Assembly: GCA_002269645.1 (NCBI GenBank)
Contig: NIVC01000814.1
Coordinates: forward strand, 376,806-440,805
DNA from: Macrostomum lignano
Lineage: Eukaryota
Length of the DNA: 64,000 bases
Direction of reading: 5' to 3'
Of the stretch, positions 8,475-64,000 are shown one piece after another (the stretch's first letter is position 1; every line of letters starts with the position of its first letter). The notes beneath the pieces were generated by a model. It was not told the DNA's origin and did not search any database. It saw only the letters and a list, made by a program, of their open reading frames with translations. The position numbers were made by a program, and so were the translations under genes.

Positions 8475-9287
8475 TCATCTGAGGAAGGCAACCTCCAAGA
8501 TGCTGACCTCAATATCTTTGGACTCCTTAAGATGATGGTTGTACGATCTGTTCAGATTGTATCGCAGATTAGCAACCTGACTGACGCTATAGTCGCGACC
8601 TTCCACCATAGCGCTAGCAACGTCATCGTTGCTCATCAGCTTCCGAGCGCAGGCCTGCCTCGCGCGATGCATCACAAATGGCATTGTGGTAGTTTTGTGC
8701 AACGAGAACACTAACCCACAAGAAGCGGCAATACCGGCTTCTAAAAAAGCAATATCGATTCCTTTCGATGATGTTGACTGTCCTGCTTTCTTGTTCCTCC
8801 TATTACTATTGCTTTTGTGACTGAGTTTCGCGTCGCTGTAAGTGCCAAACGGTGGATTGGTCACAACCACATCGAACTGTCTTTGATGAACTAGTCCAGC
8901 CGACAGGCGAGTCACATCCGCCTGCAGCAGATCCCAGTTCGCTGATACGTCATTATCATCATCATCGTTGCCAGGTGAAAACAGCTCCATCAAGTTGGAG
9001 CGGCAGAGGTCAAGCGAGTCGCTGTCAATATCGACTCCGCACACGTAACCGGAGCCCAAAGCCAGACAGCCGGTCATGAGGGCGCCGGGACCGCAGCCCA
9101 GATCCAATACGGACTGCTCGGCAGTGAAGCAATTCCAGCGCATCTTGGCATCGTACAGCCAGCTGGCAGCCACCTCGCCAGGCGTGGCGTATTGCTCCCA
9201 ACGCGATTGAGGATTAGCAAATGTTGGCACCTGTTGCAGCAGCGATTCTAACTGTTTCCGATTGCGAACCAGAGGCTGTACAGGGGC
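8475..9287 (-). CDS. METTL5: 18S rRNA N6-adenosine methyltransferase METTL5 (start codon not encoded in frame locally)
   Basis: LESLLQQV...EQYATP N-terminus, SAM motif DLGCGPG, catalytic NPPF, FSLHKTTT. Single exon; an in-frame TAA lies just upstream and the first in-frame ATG falls after conserved residues. Phase-0 acceptors at 9288-9289 (TTCCAG|GCC) and 12 nt further in (TACAG|CCT). Confidence 0.93.
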   Translation of the reverse strand, partial: APVQPLVRNRKQLESLLQQVPTFANPQSRWEQYATPGEVAASWLYDAKMRWNCFTAEQSVLDLGCGPGALMTGCLALGSGYVCGVDIDSDSLDLCRSNLMELFSPGNDDDDNDVSANWDLLQADVTRLSAGLVHQRQFDVVVTNPPFGTYSDAKLSHKSNSNRRNKKAGQSTSSKGIDIAFLEAGIAASCGLVFSLHKTTTMPFVMHRARQACARKLMSNDDVASAMVEGRDYSVSQVANLRYNLNRSYNHHLKESKDIEVSILEVAFLR

Positions 9288-9344
9288 CTGGAAGCGAGCC
9301 GACAAGTTTTAAGATAATCTAGGTTAATTAGAAACATTATTGCT

Positions 9345-22044: not shown

Positions 22045-24208
22045 TTATTGAACTTTCTTATCCTTAACAAGGCCATTTCCGCCGTTATCGCCAGCGGTTG
22101 CTGCGGCCGAGTCTATCCAATGCTCCATGGCGCATTTCTTTGGAAACCAGCCCCTAGAAGCGGAAGCGTCTCTCGCAGACTGAGACTGCTCATCAGCTAG
22201 TAATAGCTGACCGTAGAGCCATTCGCCGTGAGCTCGAGTTACAATCAGTCGCTGACCAGGCGACAATGACAATCGTTTCTCTTCGATCCAGATTGAGCAC
22301 GGCTGGCAACAGGCGGTTCTCAAGCCGAAGCTAATAGGAAATCTGGTACCAGTGTAAGCTCGAATAACGCTCGCTAATACAGCCGTACTGGCTTTATGCG
22401 CCTTTTGCAGCACCTGCTCCTTTGTTAAATCGTATTTGCCGCAATCGGGTGCCAACGGCCAATCGTCCAGGCCGTTGCCAACTGGTCGGCCGGACCAGTT
22501 TATCACCTGCCGGGTAGGAGGGAGATGGCATCTATTCTCATAGGCGATTGTGCCTAACAGGTACATTTACATATAACTGGGGTCTAACAGGGTAACAGGT
22601 GTCTAACAGATACATTGGTATCTAACACGTGTCTAACAGATACATTGGTATCTAACAGGTGTCTAACAGGTACATTGGTATCTAACAGGTGTCTAACAGG
22701 TACATTGGTATCTGACAGGTGTCTAATAGATACATTGGTATCTGACAGGTGTCTAACAGATACATTGGTATCTGACAGGTGTCTAACAGATACATTGGTA
22801 TCTAAAAGGTGTCTAACAGATACATTGGTATCCAACAGGTGTCTAGCAACTAACACACTTTGAGCATAACACGCGTCTGGTTTGTGTGTGTGTGTGTTAT
22901 TTTGCGTGTTAACGTTAACAATCCAGAAAAGTCCAACATGCAACTTAATTACCTGCTTAAAGTTTCTCATCCTACCCAAATCGTAGGGATATTGAAACTT
23001 CGGCGGCTGTCCAGCCTCATCAATGGACAAGTGAGCAGTCATGGAGTCGTGCCGGCATTCTAATCGATAATCGGCTTTATCGCAGATCCAAAACTCGATA
23101 CCAGTTCGATTGCGTAATATCGATTTTAGCTGAACAAAGAACAGAGCGCCAACTGCTATGGTGGTGCCTAAAGCGAGGCCCAGACAGAAGAATGCTAACA
23201 ATACCTCCCACAGGTTCATCATAGCGTAGTCCTCGGTCGGGAACTCAGAGTCCTGATGATAGAACGGATAGAACAGAGTATAATAGACGCAGTAGGACAC
23301 AATGACAGCCGAGTGCAGGCAGCCTAACGGGGCGAACAATAGAAAATAGGTGAACTGAGCGTGATTCCGGTGACCGACGCAGGCGTTGATCCATGGACAG
23401 TGATGATCCATCTTGGTGACGCAGCGGCCGCACCTGCTGCAGTGATGCGATCTGCAAATTTTATAATTACAGGTATTTTAGTGTCGCTTTTTTATCAGCA
23501 TAGGTTGCAATTGTTATTATTTTATATATTCTCTCGAGATGAATTATATTGCAATAATCTCGTACATTATATTTTAATCCTGATCATTTCGATCATTTAT
23601 AATTATTATCGTCTGGCTGGTCCCATATACTCGACTCTTACACCATTGATCATCAACATTATCATTGGCAACACCATCACTATCACTGTCATTACCAGTA
23701 TCATCATCATCGAAATCATCATTATCATCACACTTATCATCATTAAAATCATCACCCCACCATCTTCATCATCATCACCACCACCATCATCACAATCATA
23801 GTATTAATAATAATTTTCATAACTATAATACTCATGCCTTAAAATAATTTCAAAAGAAAAGTACTCAGCTTGTAAGTTAGTCAATAAACCAACGAAGGCC
23901 ACTCACCTAGGAGCTTTGTATCCCTTACAGATAGAGCACCATTGCAACAAAGATTTCAGTTGTTGATCGTCTGTCAAATCGATCGGTCTCCAGCCAATAG
24001 GCACAAAACCGGGACCCCAGAACATGGCCTTCAAATAGGTGGACATCACCAGGTAGTATTCAAGCGCGTATACGGCTACGTGCAGCAAATTGCTGTGCGA
24101 TTTCAATGGCGGCCACCATATTAGCAGCAGTCGACTAGTATAGATAGCTATATAGAATATGATAAATAGGGCGATTAAGGGGCCCCAGTGCAGGACCCGG
24201 CGAAGTCT
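22045..24208 (-). CDS. ZDHHC6: Palmitoyltransferase ZDHHC6 (DHHC plus C-terminal SH3-like domain); ATG not found in frame
   Basis: Exons 24208-23907, 23451-22953, 22506-22045 are phase-consistent. Motifs LHWGP, GPGFVP, YKAPRSHHC, KMDHHCPW, YPYDLG, VINWSG and GEWLYG...RGWFP. Confidence 0.93.
22575..22850. repeat. 30-bp minisatellite in ZDHHC6 intron
   Basis: AACAGGTGTCTAACAGATACATTGGTATCT tandem copies. Confidence 0.95.
23620..23800. repeat. Degenerate (CAT)n microsatellite in ZDHHC6 intron
   Basis: Directly visible. Confidence 0.85.
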
Positions 24209-25901: not shown

Positions 25902-27767
25902 TCACAGAGCACTAGCACTATTAGAAGCCGATGGCGTCTTGGCACTGCTCGGATCATTCTGATTGGCTGAAGAATCCACAACTGCCGCCTCATTCTGCTG
26001 ATCACTTAAGACAGCCTGTTGATCTGATGACTCAACATCGAAACGATTGTTCTCGCGATAATCATCCGGAAGCGATGTATGAAAGTATAATTTTAATTCT
26101 CTTTTAATAGCCGCGCAAAGGTAAGATGTTAGTAGGATTAGAGGAACAATGTAAAGCAAAGCTGGTTGGCCGCTGCCTGTAGCAAAGAGAACGCCGGCAC
26201 AGGCGCCAAGTCCAAGCAGGTAGCCAATCATTGACGAGACAAAATAAGGATAGAAACGATTTTTCCAAGCCAAATCGAAGAACAAATTCAGACTGATTAG
26301 GATAGCCGGCATTATGACATCGCCGAGACCGAGAATTGAGTAGGGCAGCAGGCAGGTGGATACAGACTCAGCCGGAGGATAGGGCATGACCTTAAACACA
26401 ATGGGAATAATCTCCCCGGATAAACCGGCTGTTCCCAAGGCTACGCGTTCCATAAAAGAGCCGCCACGTTCGACGTAATAATCCATAACGGTGTCACGCC
26501 TAACTCTATTCAAGGTTGAAGCCTCCGTTGACGGCGGGTTCGTTGGACTCGGGCCGCTGCCGCTGCCGCCGCCGCCGCCAGAGAATAGCGGCGTAATAAA
26601 GACAAAGAAAACGTCGTACACTAGGAAGCATATCAGGATAATTGTAGCAATCTTGATGCGCAGAGCCATAGCCAAGGATTCAATGACGCGCAACACGAGT
26701 ACAACGTTAAGAATATTAGTCAAGATGAAGGCCCAATGAGCATTGCGGAATACAAACCAGATTACGGCAACTGCCAGACAAAATGGATAAACGATAAACT
26801 CTAAATAAGTGTAAGATATTTTTCCGCAACATTTGCCAAGATCGAATTCTACAGTAGTTGCTAGCCAAGGCCTTGGACCAGTCTCTAGTTTGGCTTTCAC
26901 GCAGGCCAGATAGATTCTATTGATATAATAGACGAGACTGCTAGACACGGAATAGCCGTAGAGCACTAGCATTAACCAAACGAAATAGTCGTAAGCAAAG
27001 TTCAATAGCAACAGTATAGTGATTGGAATGGCAAGCAGAATAATAGTGAATATCGCTGTGTGCCACCAAGGCGCGCTAGCATTTACGTCTGGCTCATGTT
27101 CGGAGTTCGTATTCACATTAGAGGCCAACCTTGAGCGTGTTAACAAGTATTCTTTCAATGCTGTAGCGGCTGTAATGCAAGACAGCACCATAGTGACCAA
27201 TGCGATAGCATACAAAATGAGAAACATGTACTGCTTAGAACCGGAATTGTCGTCGTCTGGCCTATAGAGAGTCGCTTTGACATTCGAATCCGACATGAAC
27301 TGCGACTTAAAGGATTGGTAAGCTACCTTCGATATAACGACAGTTTGAAAGCTCTTAGGTAGAAGGTGCGACTCGGCCGTTAAATAAGTCGGATACCTTT
27401 CTGACGATACCACAATAAGACCAATGGCACCTTGAGCGAATGCGTTAACAGCCTTATCTGTATAGGTGCAACCACCCAAAGCCAGTATGACAATGCGATT
27501 AGCATAACTGGCATTGTTTCTATTGCATCCGTTGTTTGGATAAGCATCGATAATTGGCTTGCTATCCGACGAGTGGAAAGTGTTGCTCAGATTAAAGGTT
27601 AACGATGGATCGCCGTAGGCGCAATAGTTCTCATAATGAGAATCCGTGGTGCCAACGCGAAGATAAGCAATACCATTGATATTTAAATTCAAGGCTCTCG
27701 CTGTTCCGACTTCGAGTAGGAGAACCAGCAGAACTACCAGCGACAACCAACTTGCTCGTTGGTTCAT
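25902..27767 (-). CDS. SPPL2: Signal peptide peptidase-like 2 (GxGD intramembrane protease with PA domain), intronless
   Basis: Signal peptide, PA domain (NGC...IVILALGGCTYTDKAVNAFAQGAIGLIV), catalytic YD (LVYDVFFVF), LGLGD and QPALLY; ATG at 27767. Confidence 0.93.
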   Translation of the reverse strand: MNQRASWLSLVVLLVLLLEVGTARALNLNINGIAYLRVGTTDSHYENYCAYGDPSLTFNLSNTFHSSDSKPIIDAYPNNGCNRNNASYANRIVILALGGCTYTDKAVNAFAQGAIGLIVVSSERYPTYLTAESHLLPKSFQTVVISKVAYQSFKSQFMSDSNVKATLYRPDDDNSGSKQYMFLILYAIALVTMVLSCITAATALKEYLLTRSRLASNVNTNSEHEPDVNASAPWWHTAIFTIILLAIPITILLLLNFAYDYFVWLMLVLYGYSVSSSLVYYINRIYLACVKAKLETGPRPWLATTVEFDLGKCCGKISYTYLEFIVYPFCLAVAVIWFVFRNAHWAFILTNILNVVLVLRVIESLAMALRIKIATIILICFLVYDVFFVFITPLFSGGGGGSGSGPSPTNPPSTEASTLNRVRRDTVMDYYVERGGSFMERVALGTAGLSGEIIPIVFKVMPYPPAESVSTCLLPYSILGLGDVIMPAILISLNLFFDLAWKNRFYPYFVSSMIGYLLGLGACAGVLFATGSGQPALLYIVPLILLTSYLCAAIKRELKLYFHTSLPDDYRENNRFDVESSDQQAVLSDQQNEAAVVDSSANQNDPSSAKTPSASNSASAL

Positions 27768-28569
27768 TGCTTTCTCTTTGAAGAAAATTGATCGTTCAAA
27801 CAAATATTTATATAACTGCTGATCAACTCGTGAAAAATGGTATCATGAAACATTCAAAATATTGTGTCAGTCAGAGTTTACGATTTTAAATTTGGATACA
27901 AAGCTAGCTAAACAATAACAATTTTAAAAAAACACGAAGACATAAGGCGTACTTTAACTCATAAATTCGCTTCAAATTTAATTTATTAACTAAACAAATA
28001 CAATGCCAGCGAAAAAACAAACAAATATTTACAATTTGTAACAATTAAAAAATCAATCTAATAATTATAACTATTATTACCAAATATATAGAGACACCAT
28101 AGAAAATTTGCACAACATTCAATAAGTAAGAAGATACAATGAGAGTAACTATTAAACAGACTGATTGATATCTTACAGTGATTTTTTTAATCCAGTAGTA
28201 ATAGGACAATATAAAGTATTGTACAATAATAACTAGTGTGTATAGTAGGGTAAAATATGTGGACAATCTGATTGAAAAATCGAAGGAATTTAGTCGATCA
28301 TATAACACGATGAACAAGTATTACTGTGTAATTATGCATCTGGGTTGCATATGCATCATTATAATGAGTACAAAAACCAGTAAATTACCAAGCAAAACCA
28401 AGGATTACTAGAATTAGTATAAATGTAGCAACAAAATTGATCGATAGCAACGTATAATTTTTGTTACTAACACAACACCGATTCGTTAAGTTGAATGCTA
28501 CCCGTTTTCGTGCTTGTAAGAATTCTTCAGAATGTACTATAAAGCGATGTTATGAGCGATTCTGTGCTG

Positions 28570-48029: not shown

Positions 48030-49418
48030 TCATTCATCGGTTGGTAGACTTGTCTTCTCAACGTAGTCACCATGAGACATGATGCACTTCTCCCATCGGT
48101 CTCGCATCTTGTCGATGGCGTTTGCATACACATTTCTTGGGATCTGGTACAGCAAGATCCTCCTGACCTCACTCTCCAAGTGATCACAACTGTTGTGAAC
48201 TCGCCCTTGAAGCTGTCGCTTTAACTCAGGAAACAAGGCGAAGTCCGCAGGTGCCAGGTCAGGAGAATATGGAGGGTGAGGAAGCAACTCAAAGTTCAGT
48301 TGGTCAATTGCTTGCATGGTCTTTGCAGCAGTATGCGGCCTCGCATTGTCGTGGTGGAGGATATGGGGTCTTTCTTTCCCCCATCTTTTGTTGCAGATGC
48401 ATACATGCGCAACAGTCGGCCGAGTCGGCCGATCCGGCCGACCGATTTGGCGGCCAATCAAGGAAGTCGCAAAAATGCCCACCCAAAAAATAACCTGAAG
48501 AGTAGTACTAAGTAGCTGATGAGGCATTTTAGCTTAATAAAACAGTCATAGTTACTCCTGCCGTTTACCCAAAGTTGCGTTAATTTTGCTTTCGGGTTTT
48601 TTTATATGTAAGTCGCATTTTTGGCCAAAAACTACGTCGCATTTTTGTTAAAACTAAGTCGCACGGCTGACCGAATTTTGGAGGTTGCACATGTATGTGC
48701 AGATGTCTGACTTCAGTTTTGTCAGGGAGGTCACATACCAATCAGCATTGATGGTCGAGTTTGGCTCCAGGAACTCGATGGTCAGTGGGCCATTGCAATC
48801 AAAAAAGAGAGTCAGCATGACTTTGTTGCTGTGCCGGTCTCGGCGAGCTTTTGTTGGTGGATCAGATCCCCTGACGGTCCAAACCATTGACTCCTGCTTT
48901 GTTGGAGGGTCGAAGTATGGCACCCATGTCTCGTCGCCAGTTACGATCAGCTCTCGAAAGGCTTCCCATCCTCCATGTTGATTGACCAGCTCCAGGTTGT
49001 TCACACATTTCTGCTGGCGATCCAGCTTCATGACCTCAGTGAGCAATCGTGGTACCCAACGGGCACTCAGCTTGACGTGATTCATCTTCTGCAGGCACTC
49101 GTGAACTGTGGACTTCGGGCAATCCAATCGATCGGCCATTTCGCGAATGCTCTGGCGGCAGTCTTCATCAATCAAGTCGAGAATGCGATCCGTCAGGCTG
49201 CTGCTGTCGCGAATTGCAGGGCATCCGGACCTTGGCATGTTGCTCACGTCAGTTCTTCTAGCCTGAAACTCGCCCACCCACCTGCTTACTGTCATCTTGC
49301 TGACAGCATGGTCACCATGAGCTATGCAAAGTTGCCTGTGGATGTCAGCCGATTTGGTTCCGGAGCTCCAAAGTGTAAAGATGGCATGTCGCTGCCCAGT
49401 CTTTGAATGCACATCCAT
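48030..49418 (-). pseudogene. Mariner transposase, interrupted by one MITE insertion
   Basis: HTH, WVPR, TGDETW, HHDNARPH and YSPDLAPAD with 34 residues between D2 and D3. Removing 48400-48697 plus one TSD restores SDIC-NKRW in frame (about 360 aa). Confidence 0.95.
48400..48697. mobile_element. 298-bp MITE with 14-bp TIRs and perfect 8-bp TSD
   Basis: CATACATGCGCAAC...GTTGCACATGTATG, flanked by TGCAGATG at 48392-48399 and 48698-48705; internal AGTCGCA repeats. Confidence 0.92.
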
Positions 49419-51500
49419 TTGCAGTTCACAATTGAAAATTGAATGTCAATAAACTTTGCAGGTGCAGCAGAAGCAGTTTTACAAGTCCCGTAGTTTTATG
49501 AGACAGCCCTTCTTGTTCACTGCATCACATTTGGCCATAGACAGCCCATGATTACGAAAAAGTCGATAAACTCGTAAAAGTTTTCTATTGACATTTTTGA
49601 GGTTCTGTAAGTCTATGACTGACCTTTCTCTACTTAATCGTCCATATCTCTTGAAACACAGATTCAAATCTCTTGCAATTGGTGTCATTTTAAAGAAGAG
49701 ACTTGCCGCTTTCAAATGACACCAAGCACATACAAGTGTGACTGTCTATACGTCCACACCAAGCAAAAGTAACACTACTTTCTGGACGCCCCTCGTATTT
49801 TGCTTTAACTTATACTCGTTACATTATTTACTTTGTTGGTTACAAAACTTCATATCAATTTTGTTGTGTTTTACTTCTTGATCTTGACAATCTTTTCTCA
49901 ATTTTGTTTAACTTTACATGGACAATACACTAAAAGACCTGATCCCAATTCCCAAATCCCGATCCCAATCCCGAGAAAAAAATTATTCCCAATCCCGATC
50001 TCGCCCGAAGATTTCAATCCCATCCGACCTCTAGTTGCCAGATCATATTATAAAATTGATGAAAAGCTCAAGTTTTGTTATTCAATCCCTTTCTATACAT
50101 TTCATCATTTCCTCCATTTGAATAATTGTATAGGGCCTAACGCTAACAAAAGTGAATATAGATACATCCCTACTCTTGCTAAGAATTGTGGCTTACAATT
50201 AATTAGGGTAATTGCGCTTCAAAAATGCTTTCACACTGATATGCAAACAAGACTCCTATCTTTTACATAGGAGATTGTATAATGTAAGGGGATCATAAAA
50301 CAAAAGAATGCCAAATTTTTATTGCAGTCTTTCTATCTCCTATTTTTTGCTATGAATTTTTATTTGACCCATATTTTCTAGTGCCTCTTAAAACTATATG
50401 AACTTCAAACTTTGTATGAAATTTTTACCAAACATATATTCAAATATATTCAAAACTTCTAACTGTTGACTGTCCATATTTATTTTAACAAACAAAAGTA
50501 GCACTAAGTCTAAATGGTTAAAATAGATGCCTATTTTTTAGCAGCAAATACTGTTCTTTACCCCAATACGGCAATACATGCTTCATTGCTAAGTATTGTC
50601 TTCATAGGATGCAGCAGACAAACTGTCTACCCTAGGCCACAAGGTCTTTATTTAAAATTAGGCCTAGCCTAAGCCTATTGGCTATTTTATTAGGCCCCTA
50701 TAATAAATAAAATGAGCCTATGACTAGCCATACACAGCACGCAGGCTTATATTGTATTGGCCCCTACTGGTAGTGCTACTATAATAAAAAGTAGGCCTAC
50801 TAAACTGCATACGGTACACAGTATCAATGATTGACCTGATCTGACTAACATATATCTGTCAGCACTCAAAAAGAAAAAAATACGTAATACTGTCAAAAAC
50901 ATTAAGAAAGCCAGGGTTCAAAACGCTGTTCTTAAAGACGTTTTTACAATTTCGTATGGTTGGATTTTAAATCTTATCTCGCCGATTTATTAAAAATCTA
51001 CTTTCCTTTGTTTAAATTGTAAACAATAAAATTTAAAAAAACTTGTAACAAAAAGTATTTTGACAAGCAAGTACACAAGATAGGATATGCTACAAATGAA
51101 AAAAGAGTCAGAAAAGAGCTCACTGGTGTAGCTAAAATATATGAAGTCATGAATAGCTAAAACAGTTATGCAAACTGAAACAGATATATCAGCAGTGTAA
51201 TAAATCCGCTTTTCAGTTGTTTATTCATTGAAACAGATATATCAGCAGTGTAATAAATCCGCTTTTCAGTTGTTTATTCATTTACTGTCTTTTTAATTTC
51301 CTATTTAATTCGTCGTTAATCGCTAGACGTTAAGTTCGTTCGAAGTGTGTTAATGCTTGTTTTTCACGCTTTAAAATATCACGCGCTTTCAAAAATACTA
51401 TATCTTTTTACAAAAATCGCCTATTATGGAGAACAATCCTCAATTATACTAGATATTTGTTACATTGACAAAATAATATTTAACTACCTTTTCTGAATAA

Positions 51501-52556
51501 AGCCATGGATTGCTCGTCTGCATTAAATTCAAAGTTTGCAATTTTGCCCCGCGAGGCCCCCGTTCGCATCGATTGGCTACTGAAGATTCCTTAATTAGTT
51601 GTCTATATGGTTATAAAAAAAGTTGTGTGTAATTGCTGCAATGGGTTGTTTCATACATAGTAAACCCTTCCCTGAGAGCTGTCAAATTGAGTCCGCATTT
51701 CGTCGGTCATGCAGTGTCCTGCAGATGGCTACAATGATTTAAAAAAAGCTGTAAGTACATGTACGTTGGGGCATGCAGGCCAAAATCGTGCACATCAAAT
51801 TTGTAATATGTAAACAACTGCGATGGCTTGTCTTTATTTGCTTATCCTGTCAAAGATGCACAAGGGCTGGCTATTTGGCTCGACAACGTTGAAATTATTA
51901 TAAAACAGATCGAGAATTCGCACCGACATATCAAAAAAGGTACACCTGTGTGAGCTAGCTCCATTCAAGAACGAAAATTTTCTTACTTTGGCACAGGGTA
52001 GCCAAGCTCAGCTGGTACATGAATGTACAGTAAGAGTAGAAAAATATTGAGACCGGGAGCGGTTCAGAAGTACGAAATGGCCCGATTCTCCACTAGTCCT
52101 GCAGCGCTTTGATGCTGAAGACTCATGCAGTTGGACAATAACACCGCGGAGATTTGCATCCATTTGCCAAACGAAGCTTAAAGCAGCTGATTCAAACAAA
52201 AGATCGAAGCCTTATTCTATCTAGAAAGCGACGCCATCGGGTCGAAAGATTTCTAAAGGCCAAGTGTAAAAGGCATTTGCCTCTGGAGTAGTAATTCAGA
52301 CAACTGAGGAGAAGTGCATGTGCGTGGAAAACTGAATGCGAAAGTTTCAAAGAAAATCTATTTAGTTAATCAGCTAGCTATAAAATTGTTACATGTATTC
52401 ATATTTAGGAGACTTCCGTACATAAGAACTGTATCTTACAGTACGTTTTTGCCATAGACAACTAAGGAATCTTCAGTAGCCAATCGGTGCGAACGCGGGG
52501 GCTTCGCGGGGCAAAATTGCACCCCCAAATTTAAAGCAGAGGAGCAATCCATGGTT
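51501..52556. mobile_element. Non-autonomous DNA element with about 110-bp TIRs and TAA TSD (PIF/Harbinger-like)
   Basis: TAA|AGCCATGGATTGCTC...GAGCAATCCATGGTT|TAA; inner arms GCAATTTTGCCCCGCG...GAAGATTCCTTA mirrored. Confidence 0.75.
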
Positions 52557-53421
52557 TAATCATCCCAGCCTGGTTGAGCTCACGATTCTTTCACTGTCCA
52601 CACGTACCAAGCTGATTTTGGAACAATAAGGGCCTCTATATGTGCCATGTACGAGCTATTCTTGCCAGACCAATTAATTGAACGCAGCTAGGAGCCATAA
52701 AAGTCAAAGCGGTATAGCGAAAAAGCTGGCTATAGCGGCCGAGAAAGCGGATCCCAACGGACCGGCTTTGACATCATGCAAAACTGCACATGCTATTCAT
52801 GGAATAATACAGGTTCTTATAATACATCAATGCATGACTTTCTATTCTTTGCTGACATTCATTATTAATTGTCGCGGAGTCAAGAAACTAAACAACATAT
52901 ACTTTTGCTGCATTTTAGTAAGTTTTCTTAGTATAGTAATTAAATTTTACCTTTATTACATAGCTACTAGTATATTTAAAATAAAAGTCTTTTACATCAA
53001 AATCTTCTGGAAGCCTATATTTACATGTACTATACTAAAAAATTTCAGAAAAGCCTGTGAAATAAAACTTTACGGCTCTATCTGTGAATCGAAATGACCA
53101 AGTTAATTGGTAGTGTTGATGTGGTTTCTAATATAGAAAATTTTGCAAAAAACTACACAGCTATCACAGAAAATAACAATCGAAACTGCAGCTGCACCCT
53201 GCTGATCAGTGCTGATATGTGCGAGACGGATACCTTCTATATATATTTATTCTATCCAGAATACATGTACATGTATATTACGATACTAACTATAAGCTGG
53301 AAAGCAGCTTGACACATTCTCAAAGGTATCAAGGCTATAGCTAATCATTACTTTTTAGACAGAAAGTATCTCTTGCAGACAGTTTGTTTAAACCATTTGG
53401 AAACAAAAAAATCTATAAAGT

Positions 53422-56049: not shown

Positions 56050-56833
56050 TATATCGCTTTTGACGCTCTAGATAAGACTTAAGACATTCAAAATAAGACT
56101 GCATAGGATCGCAAGCAAGGCCAGGCTAGCCACGGCCAGAGCAAGCCCAGTCTTGGCTGCAGGGATGGCTTGGCCATAGACTAAAAAATTGAATATCAAA
56201 ATGAGAATAAGACGCTCAATATGAGACCGGGAGTGAACGTAATTTATTTGCTTTTTGGCAGTCACCATACAAACAGCTAAGGAGAAATTAGGCAATAAAC
56301 AAGAAGCAGAATAGCATATCGAAATGTTTAGTCCATCACTGAAGTCAGCCTGGCGGACTGCGTTAGAAGGCCATTCGATTTAAGCACCTGCCAAAGTGCC
56401 TCTGACAGCGGAGTTCCCATCTGGCCGCCTTCTCAGCTGTGATGACGAGGCCGACTGCCTCCCGTGCAATCCGCTCCAGCAGCATGAAGGTTGATCCATT
56501 GTTTACTGCGTCGATCAGATGCTGACGGTCTGCTGCAGGAATCGATGGTGCCATCACAGTGAAATCCAAGGGGTCAGATGCAACCCAAGGGGTGAAGAAG
56601 GAGAGCTGGCTGAGGGTCAGAGGGTTAGAGCGATATCTGAAGGCTTTCACACTCAGTCTCATATTGAGCGTCTTATTCTCATTTTGATATTCCATTTTTT
56701 AGTCTATGGCCAAGCCATTCCTGCAGCCAAGACTGGGCATGCTCTGGCCGTGGCTAGCCTGGCCTTGCTTGCGATCCTATGCAGTCTTATTTTGAATGTC
56801 TAAAGTCTTATCTAGAGCGTCAAAAGCGATACT
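56050..56833. mobile_element. MITE/foldback element with about 185-bp TIRs enclosing a coding-like segment
   Basis: TATATCGCTTTTGACGCTCTAGATAAGAC... mirrored to 56833; identical peptides in ORFs 56068-56295(-) and 56519-56803(+) arise from the TIRs; TA or AT TSD ambiguous. Confidence 0.8.
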
Positions 56834-57719
56834 ACTGCTGCAGGATTTGCTTTGGCTAGTGAAATATTTTGTTTTGGAATTTTGTTTTCCGGTAACAAGG
56901 TTAACTCAAACGTACAATGCTCAACGTACATCTTTAAACAAAAAGCGATATCTTCGCTCAATTCCGATCAATGGCTACTTTCCGCTACGGAAGCGATTCT
57001 CTGCTTTATCAAGTACTTGTTTTTGCTGTTTAGACCTCATCAAAACTGCACTGCTAATAAAAACTATACTTTATCCGCAGTTTCAACCAGTAGTATACGT
57101 TTTTTTGACACAAAGCCGATTTCCTTATGGCGAAATACATAGTAAGTACAGGCCCAAAAAATGGCAGAGTCCGAAATTTCATGTGCACGCAGTCTGAAAT
57201 TCCATGTGCACGCAGTCTGAAATTCCAAGTGCACGCTAAATATCTTTTACGCAACGTGATTATTCAGACGAATTGCATATCCACCTGTCCAAAATACAAG
57301 TAACCGATTCTAGCAATGGTGACACAAACACACTTCAAAGGATTCCATTCAAGACAAATTTACTCCAAAGCTATTCACACATTTCAAGTGTTATTGAAAT
57401 ATTGAAAACTTGTGAATATTATCACCCTTTTGAAGAAAGATAGTAAATGATCTATTCTTGAGTGCCTATAGAATTTTTGCACCAACTTGAGCAGATGGTT
57501 TACAGATACTATGTCAACAACTGCGTCAACATGCTTCTTCTTTATACTATATATATATACGAACACACTGACACAGAAAATATTAAATAACTTAAACCAA
57601 GTTTACATTATACTACTTGTTCAACTATACTTACATCTTAAGTGAAATGAAGCGATCACGTCAGCAGGAATTGGCCGAGCGCTATGTTAAACAAGGTAAG
57701 ATAATCACCTACTCTAGTT

Positions 57720-57945
57720 CAGTTTTCTTTTTTAGATTGACTGTTCGCTATAGTTTAGTTTCTAGATTGATTGTTAGTTCGGTTTCTGTTTAGACCGATC
57801 CTCTGTTTGTTCAGTCTCTAGATTGATTGTCTGCTAGTTCGGTTTCTGTTTAGACTAATACTCTGCTAGTTCAGAATTTCTAGATTGATTGTCTGCTAGT
57901 TCGGTTTCTGTTTAGACTGATTCTCTGCTAGTTCAGTTTCTATAT
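57720..57945. repeat. About 60-bp degenerate tandem repeat
   Basis: TAGATTGATTGTCTGCTAGTTCGGTTTCTGTTTAGAC... about 3-4 copies. Confidence 0.75.
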
Positions 57946-58759
57946 ACATTGTATACATGCACCTATACCAAATTTCCCTCATCTTATCCATTATTATAGC
58001 ATTCAAGAATGGTTTCTTCACGCGGCCACCTCCAGATCAGTGCAAACGCATTTGCCACGACACCACCACATCCAATTCTGCTGCAAGAGCATCATATTCT
58101 ACATCTCTCGCCAGAGTAACCTCGATTCATGTCGAGAGACAGACAACTGAGCTAGATCGCATTTACACAAGAACTGATGTTATTCAGTCAATTAGGCAGC
58201 AATCGAACCCACGACCAACTGACCAACTGCAGTATGCACCACCACCACCATCACCAACCAGCTACAATGACCCACCCAACAAAGCAAACTTGCAGTAAGC
58301 CTACAAGTACCAAACCAACGACAGCAACTGAAACACCATCATCATCAATTGCCATTTCTACCCAAGTTCAACCGCTGCTAAACTCGCCAATTATTGTACA
58401 GAAGGACATCAAGTCTGTAAAAGTCTCTCAAATGAGCACAGGCTTCTACCAAGTAGAATTAGCAAAGACCTGTAATACAACTCAAGTATTTGAATATTGG
58501 GACCTATCTTAAAAAGACATTTTTCTAACTCTTCATAAAATTTTGCCAGCAATGTGTCCAAGTAATTGCTCTTTTAGTATATATCAAACAAGTCTGTAAT
58601 CAATAATATAATCTCTATAAATTCATTATTCTAAAAAATTCTTTCAATTTTATTCACATTCATTGAAATTATTTAATTCAATAAAAAGTCAATATCTTGT
58701 ACAGTCATCATTAAACAAAAATTATTAATCCATGCAAATAATTTTTTTTTCATACGTTT

Positions 58760-59660
58760 CTTTAGCCATGGTCTGGCTTTTGCCTCAACAGTATGATTTA
58801 GCTGTGGTCCAGCTTTTGCCTCAACAGTATGATTTAGCTGTGGTCCAGCTTTTGCCTCAACAGTATGATTTAGCTGTGGTCCAGCTTTTGCCTCAACAGT
58901 ATGATTTAGCTGTGGTCCAGCTTTTGCCTCAACAGTATGATTTAGCTGTGGTCCAGCTTTTGCCTCAACAGTATGATTTAGCTGTGGTCCAGCTTTTGCC
59001 TCAACAGTATGATTTAGCTGTGGTCCAGCTTTTGCCTCAACAGTATGATTTAGCTGTGGTCCAGCTTTTGCCCCAACAGTTTTTAGCCGTGGTCCGGCTT
59101 TTTTGCCTCAGCAGTATGATTTAGCTGTGGTCTAGCTTAAAACTGCATCAACAGTGATTTAGCTATAGTCCAGGCTTAACTACCTCAACGATGATTTAGC
59201 TATAGTCAAGGCTTAACTGTCTCAACAGTAATTTTAGCTGTTGTCCAGACTTAACTGCCTCAACAGTGATTTTAGCTGTGGTCCAGGCAACTGTCTCAAC
59301 AGGGATTTAGCTGTAGTCCGATTAGCTTAACTGTCCAGTTATTTAGCTGTGAGCCAAGCAGCAGCACCCGTCTCAACAGTGAGAATTAGCTATGGTCAGC
59401 TTTACCTCAACTGTGATTTGGCTGCTGTGGTCTAGCATAACTGACTCAACAGTAATTTTAGCTGTAGTCGTCCAGCTTAACCACCCGTCCAGTTTTATAA
59501 CCATGGTCCAGCTTAACCACCGTCTCAACGTACAGCGATTTAGTCGTGGTCCAGCTTAACCGTCTCAACGTACAGTGATTTAGCCATGGGTCTAGTAGCA
59601 ATTAACCGTATCAATAGTGATTTAGCCGTGGTCCAGCTTAACTGTCTCAACACAGTAATT
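58760..59660. repeat. 36-bp minisatellite (TAGCTGTGGTCCAGCTTTTGCCTCAACAGTATGATT), degenerating rightwards
   Basis: Perfect to about 59100, then decays. Confidence 0.93.
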
Positions 59661-60375
59661 TAGCTTAGTCCAAACAGCATTTGTGTGTCAACTGCACTGA
59701 CTGCATGCGGTTATAGCAGCGGCAGTCATTATAGTCCCAACAAGCTGCGCGTCGCAGCATGATAGTGTAACTCTATATAGCTTCTGCTCAATATAGGACT
59801 GCAAAAGCTGAGTTACAACTATACCTTTTTCTGTTTGAAAAGTAACACTCTATATATAGGTTACTCAAGCAATCTCTTGTCACCGTGCGAGCTAAAAAAT
59901 TCCAACATGCAAGCAAAACTTTCAATAAATTAATTTCATAGCACCGCGTGCAGCTTATTTTTACTCTAAAATCCAAGATTGCTAATTTTTCAAGTCGCAA
60001 AATATTTTAATTACATTCTACTTGAGAACAAAACCAATCTAATGAAGCAGCAACCAGCAGTCTTCTTATTAAACGCTTGCCATCGTGTTACTCTTGCAAA
60101 TTTATAACTAGTGTGCCTAAGATTCATTAATTTTATTGTATAAAATATCAACCTACATTTGCGTAAAATTAGACCTAATCATGCAACCCACCCTAGAAAC
60201 TTATGCCACCTTTGGCACGCAACAATGTCTTAATCAGCACGCAACAATTAAATTTGTTTACTAGTTCACAAACAGCATGCAATGCTTGCTATAAATACAA
60301 GACCCGAAATAGTCAATTTTTCATGAGCTCAATCATTACAGCAAAAGAAATACTATATTCAATTGCTTGTAAGAC

Positions 60376-61574
60376 ATGGCAGCTTGCATCAAGACGGAGT
60401 CAATTGTACGCTCCGACTCGAGTCCGATTTTTTACGTTGGAGAGCAGTCTACAACCACGACTGGTTCGTCCTGCCAGTTTCGATCTATTGCGTGGAAACC
60501 ATCAATCGAGTGTACAAAATGGTACCCAATTATATTGCAAACCAAGGCTCCAATGGAGCTTTTTCGTGGAATCGCAGAAAGGCCAGAGCTCGATCATCCG
60601 TCTTGCAGACACGACTCTCGCGACGCAGTAAGTGTCCAATTTCATCCAGACAGCTGCGATAAGGAACTCTTCCACTCTCTCCGGTGAGCACCATATTAAA
60701 TTTATACAATTAATTTTAGGAAACTATATTCATAATTTATATAATGTTTTGCAGTCAAGTCGAAAAAGGTCTATCGGTCAAGTTGAACGAGATTCAAGAT
60801 GCTCGACCCTTGGCACGACTAACAAAACCAGCTCATCAGCATGCTAACGACGTCCTCGAGTTTGTGCCTCAACAATGGCTGGCTATAAAGCCTGCTTACC
60901 CTTGTGCCACAATCAGGATCAGCAACGATCATCCACACGGGAAGGAGGTGTCCATTTCCGATTTCAAAGGTGTCAGCGGTACCTACCAAATGACAGTGCA
61001 AGCAACGAGCTTGTATTGTCCAAAAGGCTGCCTCGTCTGGCGCATTACATTCGCTGTGCGCTCTCTGACACTCATAGAATCTTCCGACAACATGTTGCAG
61101 CGCCTCGACATGTTCAAGGGAGTGCTTGCACACCTACCCGCGACCAAGTCAGCAATTAGAAGCAGGAGTCCGTCCCCAACATCTACCTGTGAGCAAGAAG
61201 AAGCAAATGAACAAAGCCTGCAGAATTCAAGCCAGGTGACACCTGCCAAGTCACCTGCAAAGCGTCGGTCTACCACCACCGTATCGAAGAAGTCGACTAC
61301 ATCGAATGCAGCGCCAGCCTCTATTGAACCGCCGCCTAAAAAGCAAGTTCGAAAACGCAGCGGTGCAAAACAGCAAAACAATTCTGCCGAAGCTGGTGCA
61401 GATGGCACAGACTGGGTGGAGGCTCCACCAGCAAAGATCTTGGTGAGTACACCTGCCTCTGGAACCAGGGTAGCGTCCAAGGAGACAGCATTTTTAAAGC
61501 GTGCTGCTGCGGACGCTACTACAGCTAGCGTGTCTTCATCGGACGACTCGTACAGCAGCTCTGATGATGAGTAA
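60376..61574 (+). CDS. Two-exon putative OB-fold ssDNA-binding protein (NCLDV/T7 gp2.5-like), about 375 aa
   Basis: Exons 60376-60683 and 60755-61574 joined by a 71-bp phase-2 GT-AG intron. YPIILQTKAPMELFRGI...VSVQF...ELFHSLRQVEKGL and GTYQMTVQATSLY...WRITFAVRSL recall the viral SSB pattern; acidic tail SSSDDSYSSSDDE. Confidence 0.5.
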
Positions 61575-61747
61575 CAAAATTTTTGACTAATTTTATCCAA
61601 GTTTTAACTAACTTATTCCACTATATTTATCAAATTTTTGGCTAGGGAAATATTATTTTTTAGGGAAAAGCTCAAAACATTGTTTGCTACTCCTTGTACG
61701 CTAACCAGGTTTTGTAATTTAATATTAGAATTTACGATAGTATAGTC

Positions 61748-62342
61748 ATGTTTAACTTTTCTTATTATTTATTTTCCGTTTTAGCGACTTGTCCTATTAA
61801 TAGTTACTGCGAGTCTGAAGCTGCACCGTTTGAAAAATTTGATTTAAAGCAGACCAAACAGAAGCTACAGACCAGAAACCGGTTTTGCAAACTATTCCTA
61901 AGCCGACCAACAATGCTAAAGACAATTTATTCAAATGCTAAAATCCAACTTTATCCAGCAGGAAAACTAACTATATATGGCTGTAAATCAAATTCTCAGA
62001 TAGTCTCAGTTTTACGATTTATCAACGACACTATTAATTGTGTAGATTTTGATTCAGTAAAAATTCAGAGCAGTACCTATGTCGGCTTTATTGGTCATCT
62101 TTGGCCAAAATTCGGTTTCTCTAGTCTAAAAAGATATGCAGGCTACTATTCGAATTATCTGGTTGGATACGATGCAGAAAATTTCCCACAAGCAGTTTCT
62201 GTTAGATCAGCATCAAAACCAAGGCTTTTTTGTAACATATTTTTTTCGAAAAAGTTTGTTATTATGGGCGTTCGAAAACACTCATGAATTGAATAATATT
62301 CTTAACCATGTCAAGGATTTTTTAATCTCTGTTAATAACTAA
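61748..62342 (+). CDS. Divergent TATA-binding-protein-like gene, intronless, frameshift near the 3' end
   Basis: Two TBP repeats: AKIQLYPAGKLTIYGCKS and YDAENFPQAV...PRLFCNIFFSKKFVIMGVR; the C-terminal helix THELNNILNHVKDFL continues in another frame (to 62342). Confidence 0.7.
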
Positions 62343-62564
62343 ACTTAACAAGTAAACAATTGCTGTCAAATCGCAGTTGCGATGCATTCTTTTACAAACA
62401 TTTTGTCTTTTTTTTTTATTTACCAATTGTTTTCTCTAATAGTAAACGTGTCAGCTATACCTATAACTAACCAAATCATCATTTTTCTTACAGCCGCAAA
62501 TGACAAACCGGATCATCTATTAATATTATGCTCGATACGCTCGTTGTCGAGCTAGGTGCACACA

Positions 62565-63650
62565 ATGCCGCGTGCACAATGCCAAATCTGCAGAAAAAAG
62601 TTCAGTAATCAAGCCGAGCTGCATGCTCACTCGCATGGTGCTTGTTTTTCACCGCAACGATTACTGACGGCGGATCGCTGCAAAACCTGATCGAAAACCC
62701 ACCAGATGGGTGGTCCATCGCTTTGCGCGAGTCAGCTCATCGTGGTCGGGTAAATTTTGTCGAATTTACTCCCACTCTTGAACAACAAGGCAACAGCTCT
62801 GGCGAGTTACTTCCTGGCGAGTTGATTGCGTCTTTAAGAGAACCAATATTTAAAATATTGGAAAAAATTGGCTCACCCAGTTTATTAATAAGAGTCTGCT
62901 TTCACTTGAAAGTGACACTATTTCGACCGAAACAGCAGCAGACGACAACGATGGCTCGAGCAGCGAAGAGATCATTTCGGTCTATTTTAATACCAACATT
63001 GCGACAATATCATTTGATGAGACGATTGCAAACAGTGACATGCTGTTATCTCCCGAGGCCTACAATGACTGGTTCGCACGCGTTATTAATCAGTTGTTAA
63101 TAAAAATTGACAATTTTCAATCTCGAGGTAGTAATTGGCAATATAGAGCAATCGAGCAGCTAGACTTGATGCTCTGGCGTTTATCGCAAAAGCCATGCAA
63201 GCACACTGTCAACAAATACGTCCCACGGTGGTGTGGGGGGCGGCGGCAGTGGTGGTGGTGGCGGCGGTGGTGGTGGTGGTGGTGGGGCGGTGGTGGTGGT
63301 GGTGGTGGCGGCGGCGGCGGCGGCGCGGCGGGCGGGGAGTCCGGTCCAGTCCGGTCCGGTCCAGTCCGGTCCGGTCTGGTTAAGCAGCAATCGTTTAAAG
63401 TTCCAGTCTCAATCGGTCGCAAAGCTGGCAGTACTGCTTCTAAAGCCGCACAGAGCAGTTTAAAGCATCAAGACTATTTAAGAGTCTTACACAAGTGACA
63501 ACTTGTGTTTTCGCGCATGCAGTCCATTCGTTCTCGAAAACAGAAAGTTTTTTTTTGATGCAACAAAGAAAACTTGCACTAAGCTTCTTCGATACGAAGC
63601 GATCCTGGACAAGTTCAATTAATTCGCTACCCTTTGGACACTGGCACTTG
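62565..63650 (+). pseudogene. Polinton/Maverick-type PolB-like relic: C2H2 finger, N-terminal GSxW domain, C-terminal thumb; core deleted
   Basis: CQICRKKFSNQAELHAHSH (from 62565); RESAHRGRV...IRVCFHLKVTLF; KIDNFQSRGSNWQY...NKYVP..GG; then GLVKQQSFKV...RKAGST...LKHQDYLRVLHK*QLVFSRMQSIRSRKQKVFF. Several frameshifts and an in-frame TGA. Confidence 0.6.
63228..63375. repeat. (GGT/GGC)n plus (GTCCG)n microsatellite at the PolB deletion junction
   Basis: Directly visible. Confidence 0.9.
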
Positions 63651-63955
63651 GCTAATTAATTAACAATATGCTCTGATCTCTTTTGTTGTACAAAGTAATA
63701 GCATGCTATAGAAGACTGTAACCCATCATTAATTTTTTCATTGATCATTATTTACAATAAATAAATGATACCGGCATTCGTTTAAATTATAATTTTAGCA
63801 CTTTTTTAATTGTGTTTAATTATTTGAAAAAGTATATTTTTTATAGTTAGATTCTCAAGACTAAGCTTGTGTTTGTAGTAGACGTAAATGTAGTGCTATC
63901 GTTCATGTTTCAAGAAAAAAAACTTTTTTTTAAACTTTCAGCTACAAGAATCGAC

Positions 63956-64000
63956 ATGAATCCCGAGCAGCAGCAGCAACAACAACTAACTGATCGTAAG
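63956..64000 (+). CDS. Possible 5' end of another gene (MNPEQQQQQQLTDRK...), runs off the window
   Basis: ATG 15 nt after a polypyrimidine CTTTCAG acceptor (63940-63941); only 15 codons visible. Confidence 0.3.
   Translation, partial: MNPEQQQQQQLTDRK

Follow-up and report, generated by a model that had tools for sequence, protein, structure and literature searches.

The right-hand part of the window (the whole stretch of 64,000 nucleotides analysed here, which is the last 64 kb of contig NIVC01000814.1, or C814, of the flatworm Macrostomum lignano) is the left arm of a young Maverick/Polinton from which the polymerase has been deleted, an identification that we regard as practically certain. 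The element is multi-copy and non-autonomous in the Macrostomum lignano genome and, by its termini, target-site duplication and gene set, it is a plain Maverick/Polinton and no new kind of module. Its left arm encodes a protein with a predicted TATA-binding protein (TBP) fold, and we think it reasonably probable that the right-arm genes for capsid and packaging are switched on when this protein recognises a TATAAG box, the left-arm genes being cut from one transcript by the cis- and trans-splicing of the host. What appears to be new here is the joining of a host spliced leader to an element transcript and a family of copies that keeps only the terminal-protein part of the polymerase gene; the TBP gene itself is known as a common accessory of Mavericks.

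The element and its genes

Both ends of the element and the 6-bp duplication that flanks them were observed directly (Table 1). The left terminus lies at 57089, 800 bases to the left of where an initial annotation, made from the sequence alone, had started a virus-like module (57900); that annotation was mistaken in stating that no terminus could be seen in the window, and an orphan spliced gene and a tandem array of 36-nt units lie within the interval 57900-60300 of its module. Contig C892 overlaps the final 1,912 bases of the window at 99.0% identity and continues past it with genes in the order dUTPase, phospholipase A2 (PLA2), ATPase, minor capsid, protein-X-like, integrase, major capsid and protease, as far as the right repeat. 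The extension beyond 64 kb which the initial annotation had suggested thus yielded the integrase gene, candidate capsid, ATPase and protease genes, the right end and the second copy of the duplication. The element at this locus is approximately 15 kb long, and copies closed on a single contig measure 14.7-15.3 kb. The 36 termini read, drawn from 45 exact and a few inexact matches, are flanked by 16 different hexamers, and each of the 14 that occur at right ends was also found at a left end. The available text of PMC8097293 gives (AG)3 or (AGT)2 ends and a 6-bp duplication for Mavericks. On contigs C84, C4450 and C4064 the left and right flanks come from different insertions, the assembly having swapped arms between near-identical copies.

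A protein-primed family B polymerase is encoded in the family (PF03175, 72 bits on the C84 copy, with all catalytic motifs present); its catalytic part is absent from the window copy through a deletion, which makes this copy a non-autonomous member. Pfam confirmed the dUTPase (PF00692, 50.5 bits) and PLA2 (PF08398, 37.3 bits) genes on the C84 copy, PLA2 being an accessory of Alpha adintoviruses, and the integrase on C892 scored 33.7 bits against PF00665 (cut-off 32.6) and has a chromodomain in addition. The putative packaging ATPase and protease genes, which are also suggested by their position, show a P-loop and Cys/His motifs, respectively, with 25-44% identity to genes of metagenome elements and Pfam scores under the cut-off. 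The capsid genes are candidates, namely a 462-aa frame and a minor-capsid-like frame at the expected places, with 27-42% identity to metagenome relatives and no Pfam match. In one family the PLA2 gene (L111:1881-2386) is split by approximately 80 nt in a tblastn map.

The co-oriented + strand open reading frames (ORFs) reported by the initial annotation are present, as is its ATG at 63956, which opens the dUTPase gene, and its polypyrimidine-AG sites, which lie before the TBP, terminal-protein and dUTPase genes. An integrated giant virus (Nucleocytoviricota) was considered and rejected, the element closing at approximately 15 kb and no copy holding a match to TFIIB (PF00382). Scans for viral contigs returned three loci, all giant-virus-like and without Maverick genes, and two further scans returned none.

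The TBP-like protein and the TATAAG box

The ORF which the initial annotation had called TBP-like was borne out by Pfam (PF00352, 24.9 bits, cut-off 22.9); for representatives of six families, three scored over this cut-off, two slightly under it and one gave no match. TBPs made up 35 of the 37 matches in a profile search of PDB sequences. An AlphaFold model is two-lobed (predicted local distance difference test, pLDDT, 89.5; predicted template-modelling score, pTM, 0.67) and every listed Foldseek match to rank 44 was a TBP (best E 3.7e-10, template-modelling score, TM, 0.64-0.78); the gene product is predicted to carry the two-lobed TBP saddle. The host TBP gene lies elsewhere, its product having 24% identity to the TBP-like protein over 131 residues and grouping with cellular TBPs in a quick tree, and this low identity and placement argue against a fresh capture of host TBP. 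The ORF has 78 matches in the genome, 29 of them at 97% identity or above, and the element's ORFs recur together at many loci; in six families with 39-46% identity to the window type the gene lies between the SSB-like (single-stranded DNA-binding protein-like) and polymerase genes with its frame open, the downstream gene order being identical in the four families traced further. One family has the TBP-fold exon fused in frame to a deoxynucleoside kinase (L032:4140-5519, L033:4072-5451, minus; 460 aa), and in other families the kinase overlaps or follows the TBP exon; it has been lost from the window's family.

In an 11-row alignment D130, E132, F134 and F153 are invariant. The phenylalanine pair of the second lobe is kept and the first lobe has P42 and Y57 at the phenylalanine positions, a register which hinges on an alignment gap, so that two of the four intercalating phenylalanines are changed; the strand-1 asparagines are also replaced. 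The phenylalanine and asparagine positions are assigned to the reading of TATA in part after PMC7221094. By sequence comparison the acidic residues of the C-terminal stirrup (D130/E132) are kept, and it is the acidic stirrup that contacts TFIIB according to the available text of PMC7221094. A TFIIB-family search gave 15 matches, none within an element copy, and a predicted complex between the TBP-like protein and the product of the C-terminal exon of host TFIIB (score 0.00, alignment unused) is evidence neither way. The TBP-like protein may be the element's own basal transcription factor.

The pattern TATAAG[CT][AT]A was found 24 times in the sense and never in the antisense orientation of five right arms (0.55 expected per strand), at sites before the PLA2, minor capsid, protein-X-like and pre-capsid genes. 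It does not occur in seven left-arm stretches (1.4 expected) and occurs three times in the host part of the window (1.8 expected per strand). The box is fixed in this form across five families whose proteins differ by 30-60%. Together with the ordinary TATA box of the SSB-like gene (five of six families tried), this split would fit host transcription of an early arm and transcription of a late arm through a viral factor, by analogy with the herpesvirus vTBP, which directs late viral transcription (PMC12529657, available text). In the proposed switch the TBP-like protein, having two of four phenylalanines changed and the TFIIB stirrup acids kept, would bind the right-arm box and bring host TFIIB and RNA polymerase II (Pol II) to it, a step that we consider fairly probable.

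TBP-like genes are a common accessory of Mavericks. A profile search with the TBP-like protein found 142 proteins, four of them close, and about 40 of the others, chosen by eye and pattern, show a motif of the type K-L-Y-x-G-R-P-x-M-L. With 12 of these motif proteins as queries 44 metagenome loci were retrieved, of which 29 carry at least one Maverick gene and 21 at least two; for loci of at least 4 kb the figure is 15 of 17 with Maverick genes. The genome also holds a second Maverick clade, distant from the first, with a TBP-like gene of its own (150 of 330 candidate matches listed), and 11 of 12 sampled TBP-centred stretches of this clade lie beside Maverick genes. In the quick tree (70 rows, the 142 hits sampled by hand and no long rows dropped) the window family groups with metagenome Maverick TBPs (Shimodaira-Hasegawa-like approximate likelihood ratio test, SH-aLRT, 93, which is below the support mark of 95) and the second host clade stands apart on a long branch. 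In the second clade (C414, C96, C136, C100, C130 and others; L193-L210) the TBP-like gene has its own ATG and is accompanied by a PC4-like gene (PF02229, 29.7 bits), and in metagenome Mavericks (L139:3208-4234, L146:8810-9565, L154:2793-3350) the TBP-like gene is immediately preceded by one or two short ORFs that look PC4-like by eye and have no Pfam match.

A TBP-like gene is labelled in a MELD virus in the Fig. 5 legend of PMC8502044, in its section on non-animal hosts, and also in the preprint of that paper. The initial annotation was right both in its reading of an integrated DNA virus or giant transposon and in its TBP-like gene; its suggestion of a new kind of combination does not stand, TBP-like genes being common in Mavericks and the TBP label being in print. 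The main texts of PMC10748475, PMC8097293 and PMC11161782 make no mention of TBP or TATA. Literature searches on Maverick with Macrostomum, and on Polinton with PC4 and TATA, found no paper, and one on Polinton with spliced leader found only a dinoflagellate paper, known by its listing; further literature listings, one of them covering 40 of 533 entries, brought nothing more on these points. Word-index protein searches with the TBP-like protein gave no match and hence no annotated SSB-TBP fusion, which is weak evidence.

Deletion, splicing and the proposed late switch

The zinc finger-GSxW-polymerase relic of the initial annotation does have its C2H2 finger and GSxW motif but is not a decayed relic, as the polymerase has been cut by one clean deletion at 30 assembled places. 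The deletion was observed directly: its junction joins two points that lie 3,162 nt apart in a longer copy, and is real since it was seen as a joint in three of four sequencing runs. These X-numbered runs, none of which is recorded as RNA, are taken by us as RNA; their contigs give no starts, strand or molecule length, and show presence and not absence. The deletion is spanned by 30 of 40 listed junction matches (48 candidates), which are assembled places, some of them the same insertion on two contigs. Nine of 40 matches to the breakpoint region extend into the polymerase (three with full spacing, three with a second deletion and the rest unassigned), and deletion-carrying and polymerase-complete assembled places stand at 30:3. 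Another deletion inside the polymerase, 1,153 nt long, was seen as a joint in run X1 (L091:3866-5020), and C4827, C2428 and C300 are shorter by the same amount.

The break lies approximately 14 nt before the vOTU cysteine codon, with the vOTU, exonuclease and palm motifs lost and the zinc finger, the GSxW-bearing domain and the Gly-rich linker kept. By its position the GSxW-bearing domain is probably the terminal-protein domain, following PMC11161782, the available text of which predicts cleavage between the terminal protein and vOTU of the Polinton polymerase. In 9 of 15 deleted-copy stretches the terminal-protein frame runs for 293-301 codons and ends at the junction, the others shifting frame earlier; in the window copy it closes after 41 codons. 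The whole polymerase lies in a single frame in 1 of 17 stretches read, and so a helper can exist. Ten copies compared over 3.4 kb differ by 0-8 substitutions (45 pairs, median 2), which marks them as a recent burst on sequence grounds, and the deleted copies are too young for measurable selection.

It is likely that the deleted copies, which would still make terminal protein, SSB-like protein, capsid and integrase, borrow the polymerase of the few complete relatives, for which defective-interfering genomes are a parallel; that they make use of their own terminal protein is a more tentative proposal. Alternatively, the deletion family may be a passive passenger, the break having fallen near the vOTU cysteine by chance, the terminal-protein-only frame being inert and the proteins coming from complete copies, and the likelihood of this falls only a little short of even. 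A single deletion event explains every copy, so that the break position is one observation, and the Gly-rich repeat just upstream makes the region unstable; yet the terminal-protein frame stays open to the junction in most of the deleted-copy stretches, and the deleted family outnumbers the polymerase-complete places tenfold. Whichever applies, the terminal-protein-only family is a natural test of the terminal-protein/vOTU split proposed for Polinton polymerases. No earlier description of such a family, or of the leader join described below, was found in a search which reached few subscription papers.

Two introns of the left arm were observed directly, one in the orphan gene (Table 1) and one in the SSB-like gene, the GT..AG joint of the latter being present in five of seven runs from three studies (X2, X6, X7, X8 and X12; not X18 or X1). 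One contig of run X8 carries 23 foreign letters that end exactly at the acceptor before the terminal-protein gene (62493), and these match 23 of the final 24 letters of the 35-nt leader that the available part of PMC8629364 gives for this worm. The leader letters occur 58 times in the genome, none of these on listed element copies, and 9 of the 20 leader places read are spliced leader (SL) RNA genes with a GTAAG donor. The X8 contig is a trans-spliced product, seen once. Many other leader copies (L093-L097, L119, L120, L123-L128, L131-L133) are not SL RNA genes and several share a flank, so they may head a repeat family or be retrocopies; the true SL RNA genes lie in arrays with a period of approximately 11.3 kb. 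According to the available texts, the host puts leaders on 30% of its genes and has operons (PMC8629364), and flatworm leaders end in AUG and can initiate translation (PMC9851317).

Acceptor-like sites are common, 25% of random 130-nt left-arm windows holding one, and because they are so frequent by chance only those fixed across families or seen in RNA were counted. The TBP acceptor is in phase 0 in 20 of 21 stretches, and a leader joined there would give an in-frame Met-Arg-Leu-Val. At the candidate donor within the SSB-like frame the Val-Ser codons are GTR-AGY in five of five families, against a background of 32/60 and 50/143 in the same frames; two other invariant serines use TCN or mixed codons, a control that shared ancestry weakens. 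We propose that host Pol II would start at the ordinary TATA box upstream of the SSB-like gene, this box being the likely left-arm promoter, and read through the TBP-like, terminal-protein/polymerase and dUTPase genes as an operon. The acceptors of the genes further down would then receive the host spliced leader, as happens in host operons, although as a general rule this could equally well be wrong. The TBP exon, lacking a start codon, would either gain its Met from the leader AUG or be spliced to the SSB-like exon at 61443; both are in frame, and we have good confidence that one route or the other is used.

Several points count against this scheme of expression. The leader join is one contig from one run at one site; the leader AUG opens a short out-of-frame ORF at the terminal-protein and dUTPase acceptors, and so is no general initiator; the polymerase and dUTPase acceptors were found by pattern in only some families; and in four families a conserved peptide follows Val-Ser, so that protein constraint could explain part of the donor conservation. 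Among the joints listed for seven runs there was no joint 61442-61785 and no leader at the TBP or dUTPase acceptors. The left arm might instead be one alternatively cis-spliced unit like adenovirus E2, with the leader join an incidental trans-splicing at an unpaired acceptor, as could be argued from two cis introns shown, a third predicted and just one leader join listed. We regard this as rather unlikely, since it is the leader join and no cis joint to the acceptors 61784, 62493 and 63941 that is found among the listed joints, and since leaders and operons are in regular use in this host; cis-spliced and leader schemes may also coexist.

The late switch itself has to be weighed against a similar set of difficulties. 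The box pattern was chosen after inspection of the sequences and resembles a TATA box so closely that host TBP could read it, the early/late split is blurred by two families with TATATAAGG upstream of the SSB-like gene, and the ATPase, integrase and protease are among the right-arm genes without their own box. The available text of PMC7221094 concludes that recruitment of host TFIIB by viral TBPs is in general unlikely. Furthermore, the TBP frame is broken in the window copy and in 2 of 12 other stretches, the break in the window possibly being an assembly error or a mark of a minor subfamily; the sequencing runs read the breaks of both the TBP and the terminal-protein frame unlike the window.

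Host TBP may therefore read the box, with the viral protein serving replication or packaging (for example as an SSB-TBP fusion on AT-rich ends or replicating DNA) or acting as a decoy for TFIIB/TFIIA. The position of the TBP gene between the SSB-like and polymerase genes, its fusion to a deoxynucleoside kinase in one family, the conserved in-frame donor of the SSB-like frame and the altered phenylalanines and strand-1 asparagines would all suit such a role. It is nonetheless rather unlikely, as the box is fixed across families more tightly than host TBP would seem to need, the entire two-lobed saddle and its stirrup acids are kept, and in other Mavericks the TBP-like gene is unfused and has an ATG of its own, frequently with a PC4-like gene as its neighbour. 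That the ORFs are ordinary or decayed host genes lying together by chance, for which the initial annotation had allowed, can be dismissed, for although they have introns and host-type acceptors they are multi-copy, lie between inverted repeats flanked by a 6-bp duplication, keep together in six divergent families, include a TBP far from that of the host in both sequence and location, and are followed by capsid, integrase and protease genes on C892.

If the late switch, the operon and the borrowing of polymerase were all to hold, a minimal cascade of early and late genes would operate in Mavericks, a bare viral TBP of 185 aa reading its own TATAAG box together with host TFIIB. The flatworm early arm would be an operon cut by leaders, with the leader AUG or the SSB splice as the only start codon of the TBP, so that host splicing would gate the late switch, and a terminal-protein-only, defective-interfering family would outnumber its helper by approximately 10:1. 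As a whole this picture is speculative and rather unlikely. If true, DNA virus genes that receive the host spliced leader, and a transcription factor that otherwise lacks a start codon, would be a tight and unusual adaptation to the flatworm.

Related systems and other features of the window

The Mavericks/Polintons (adintoviruses) of the available texts of PMC8097293, PMC8502044 and PMC11161782 have the same (AGT)2 ends, 6-bp duplication and size of 15-20 kb, ATPase, protease and capsid genes like the candidates of the window element, the same parts of the protein-primed polymerase (terminal protein, vOTU, exonuclease and palm) as the complete relatives of the window element, and an rve integrase with a chromodomain. 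A PLA2 gene is also present in Alpha-class virion modules. Intact vertebrate elements are described as intronless, whereas the left arm of the window element has spliceosomal introns and a leader join; the element also carries TBP-fold, SSB-like and dUTPase genes, with deoxynucleoside kinase in other families, and its commonest form is without polymerase. For the MELD virus the available text of PMC8502044 has the TBP label only, with no family, fold, promoter or expression route.

The vTBP of beta- and gamma-herpesviruses, for example ORF24 of Kaposi's sarcoma-associated herpesvirus (PMC12529657, available text), is alike as a viral TBP mimic that directs host Pol II to late promoters. ORF24 is, however, large, acts together with other viral factors and by prediction does not bind TFIIB, whereas the protein of the window's family is a bare 185-aa saddle with the stirrup acids kept, no partner complex seen and a predicted function. 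TBP-like proteins of giant viruses and poxviruses (PMC7221094, available text, and BFVD hits) have the same divergent two-lobed fold in a double-stranded DNA virus, but these viruses mostly encode their own TFIIB and RNA polymerase and the 15-20 kb element shows neither. A stand-alone terminal-protein frame is also found in the Stylophora Polinton with a separate terminal-protein gene (PMC11161782, available text); there the polymerase is split off, whereas in the window's family it is deleted, leaving dependence on other copies. For Mavericks/Polintons in general, gene timing and present viral activity become testable through this family, which offers both a factor and a box that can be named, in a host kept in the laboratory.

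Table 1. Features of the element in the window, with positions counted from the first base of the window
Feature	Position	Strand	Details
6-bp target-site duplication, left copy	57083..57088	+	TCAACC; identical hexamer after the right end on overlapping contig C892
Left terminal inverted repeat	57089..57191	+	AGTAGT start; 104 nt, 95% identity to right end on C892; other copies begin at the same letter
Orphan spliced gene	57647..58298	+	Exon 57647-57695, intron 57696-57999, second exon; GT..AG joint in 3/4 runs; frame closes early in window copy
36-nt tandem array	58761..59664	.	Length varies between copies
Ordinary TATA box, upstream of SSB-like gene	60290..60297	+	TATA-type box in 5/5 families with start located, 6 tried
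SSB-like gene	60376..61574	+	375 aa; exon 60376-60683, intron 60684-60754, exon 60755-61574; acidic tail
Candidate internal splice donor, phase 0	61443..61448	+	GTGAGT within SSB-like frame; GTRAG at same Leu/Val-Ser boundary in 19/21 stretches
TBP-fold exon, no start codon	61785..62342	+	Phase-0 acceptor AG 61783-61784; mostly 185 codons; window copy closes after 20
Acceptor before terminal-protein gene	62480..62493	+	Spliced-leader join site
Zinc finger, putative terminal-protein domain and Gly-rich linker	62565..63463	+	GSNW at 63127; frameshifted in window copy
Deletion junction, 3,162 nt	63457..63458	.	vOTU protease, exonuclease and polymerase domains removed
Polymerase gene 3' remnant	63458..63659	+	Out of frame with terminal-protein part
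dUTPase gene start	63956..64000	+	Acceptor ends 63941; whole dUTPase frame continues on C892

The spliced SSB-like gene of the initial annotation was correct as to its intron, and its identity as an SSB is faintly suggested by language-model neighbours. These are proteins of nucleocytoplasmic large DNA viruses (NCLDV; 0.92), DUF5871/DUF2738 (0.87) and Pox_I3 (0.86, 12% of members), of which we take DUF2738 and Pox_I3 to be SSBs; no text naming DUF2738 was found in the literature. The protein had no match among Pfam, PHROGs or PDB profiles, and a model of its second exon alone reached a pLDDT of 44.8. UniRef protein P0149 is of the same length and sequence type, and homologs were found only in the host Macrostomum lignano (6 hits). 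The last 20 residues hold six D/E and no K/R, relatives likewise ending acidic. The protein resembles T7 gp2.5-type and NCLDV/poxvirus SSBs in a folded part of approximately 240 residues, a basic linker, the acidic tail and a replication-gene neighbourhood, but differs in being without a sequence-profile or fold match; on these features we treat its being an SSB as a lead that is somewhat favoured. The names that UniRef gives to SSB-like proteins (VASt, OTU, YDG, PTB, FYR) were rejected, as they are mutually contradictory and have no Pfam support. The orphan gene at the left end had no Pfam match and no match in other element families.

Outside the element, two small inverted-repeat elements at 56052-56831 and 51497-52560 (186-nt arms at 96%; nested 26-40-nt arms) are probably miniature inverted-repeat transposable elements, and a Mariner-type transposase frame (PF01359, 52 bits; PF17906) lies on the minus strand at 48654-49445. 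Co-oriented host genes with many tandem arrays between them occupy 4900-38600 of the minus strand, and include a methyltransferase (8475-9308), a DHHC-type frame recognised by eye (22584-23477) and a signal peptide peptidase-like gene (25902-27842).

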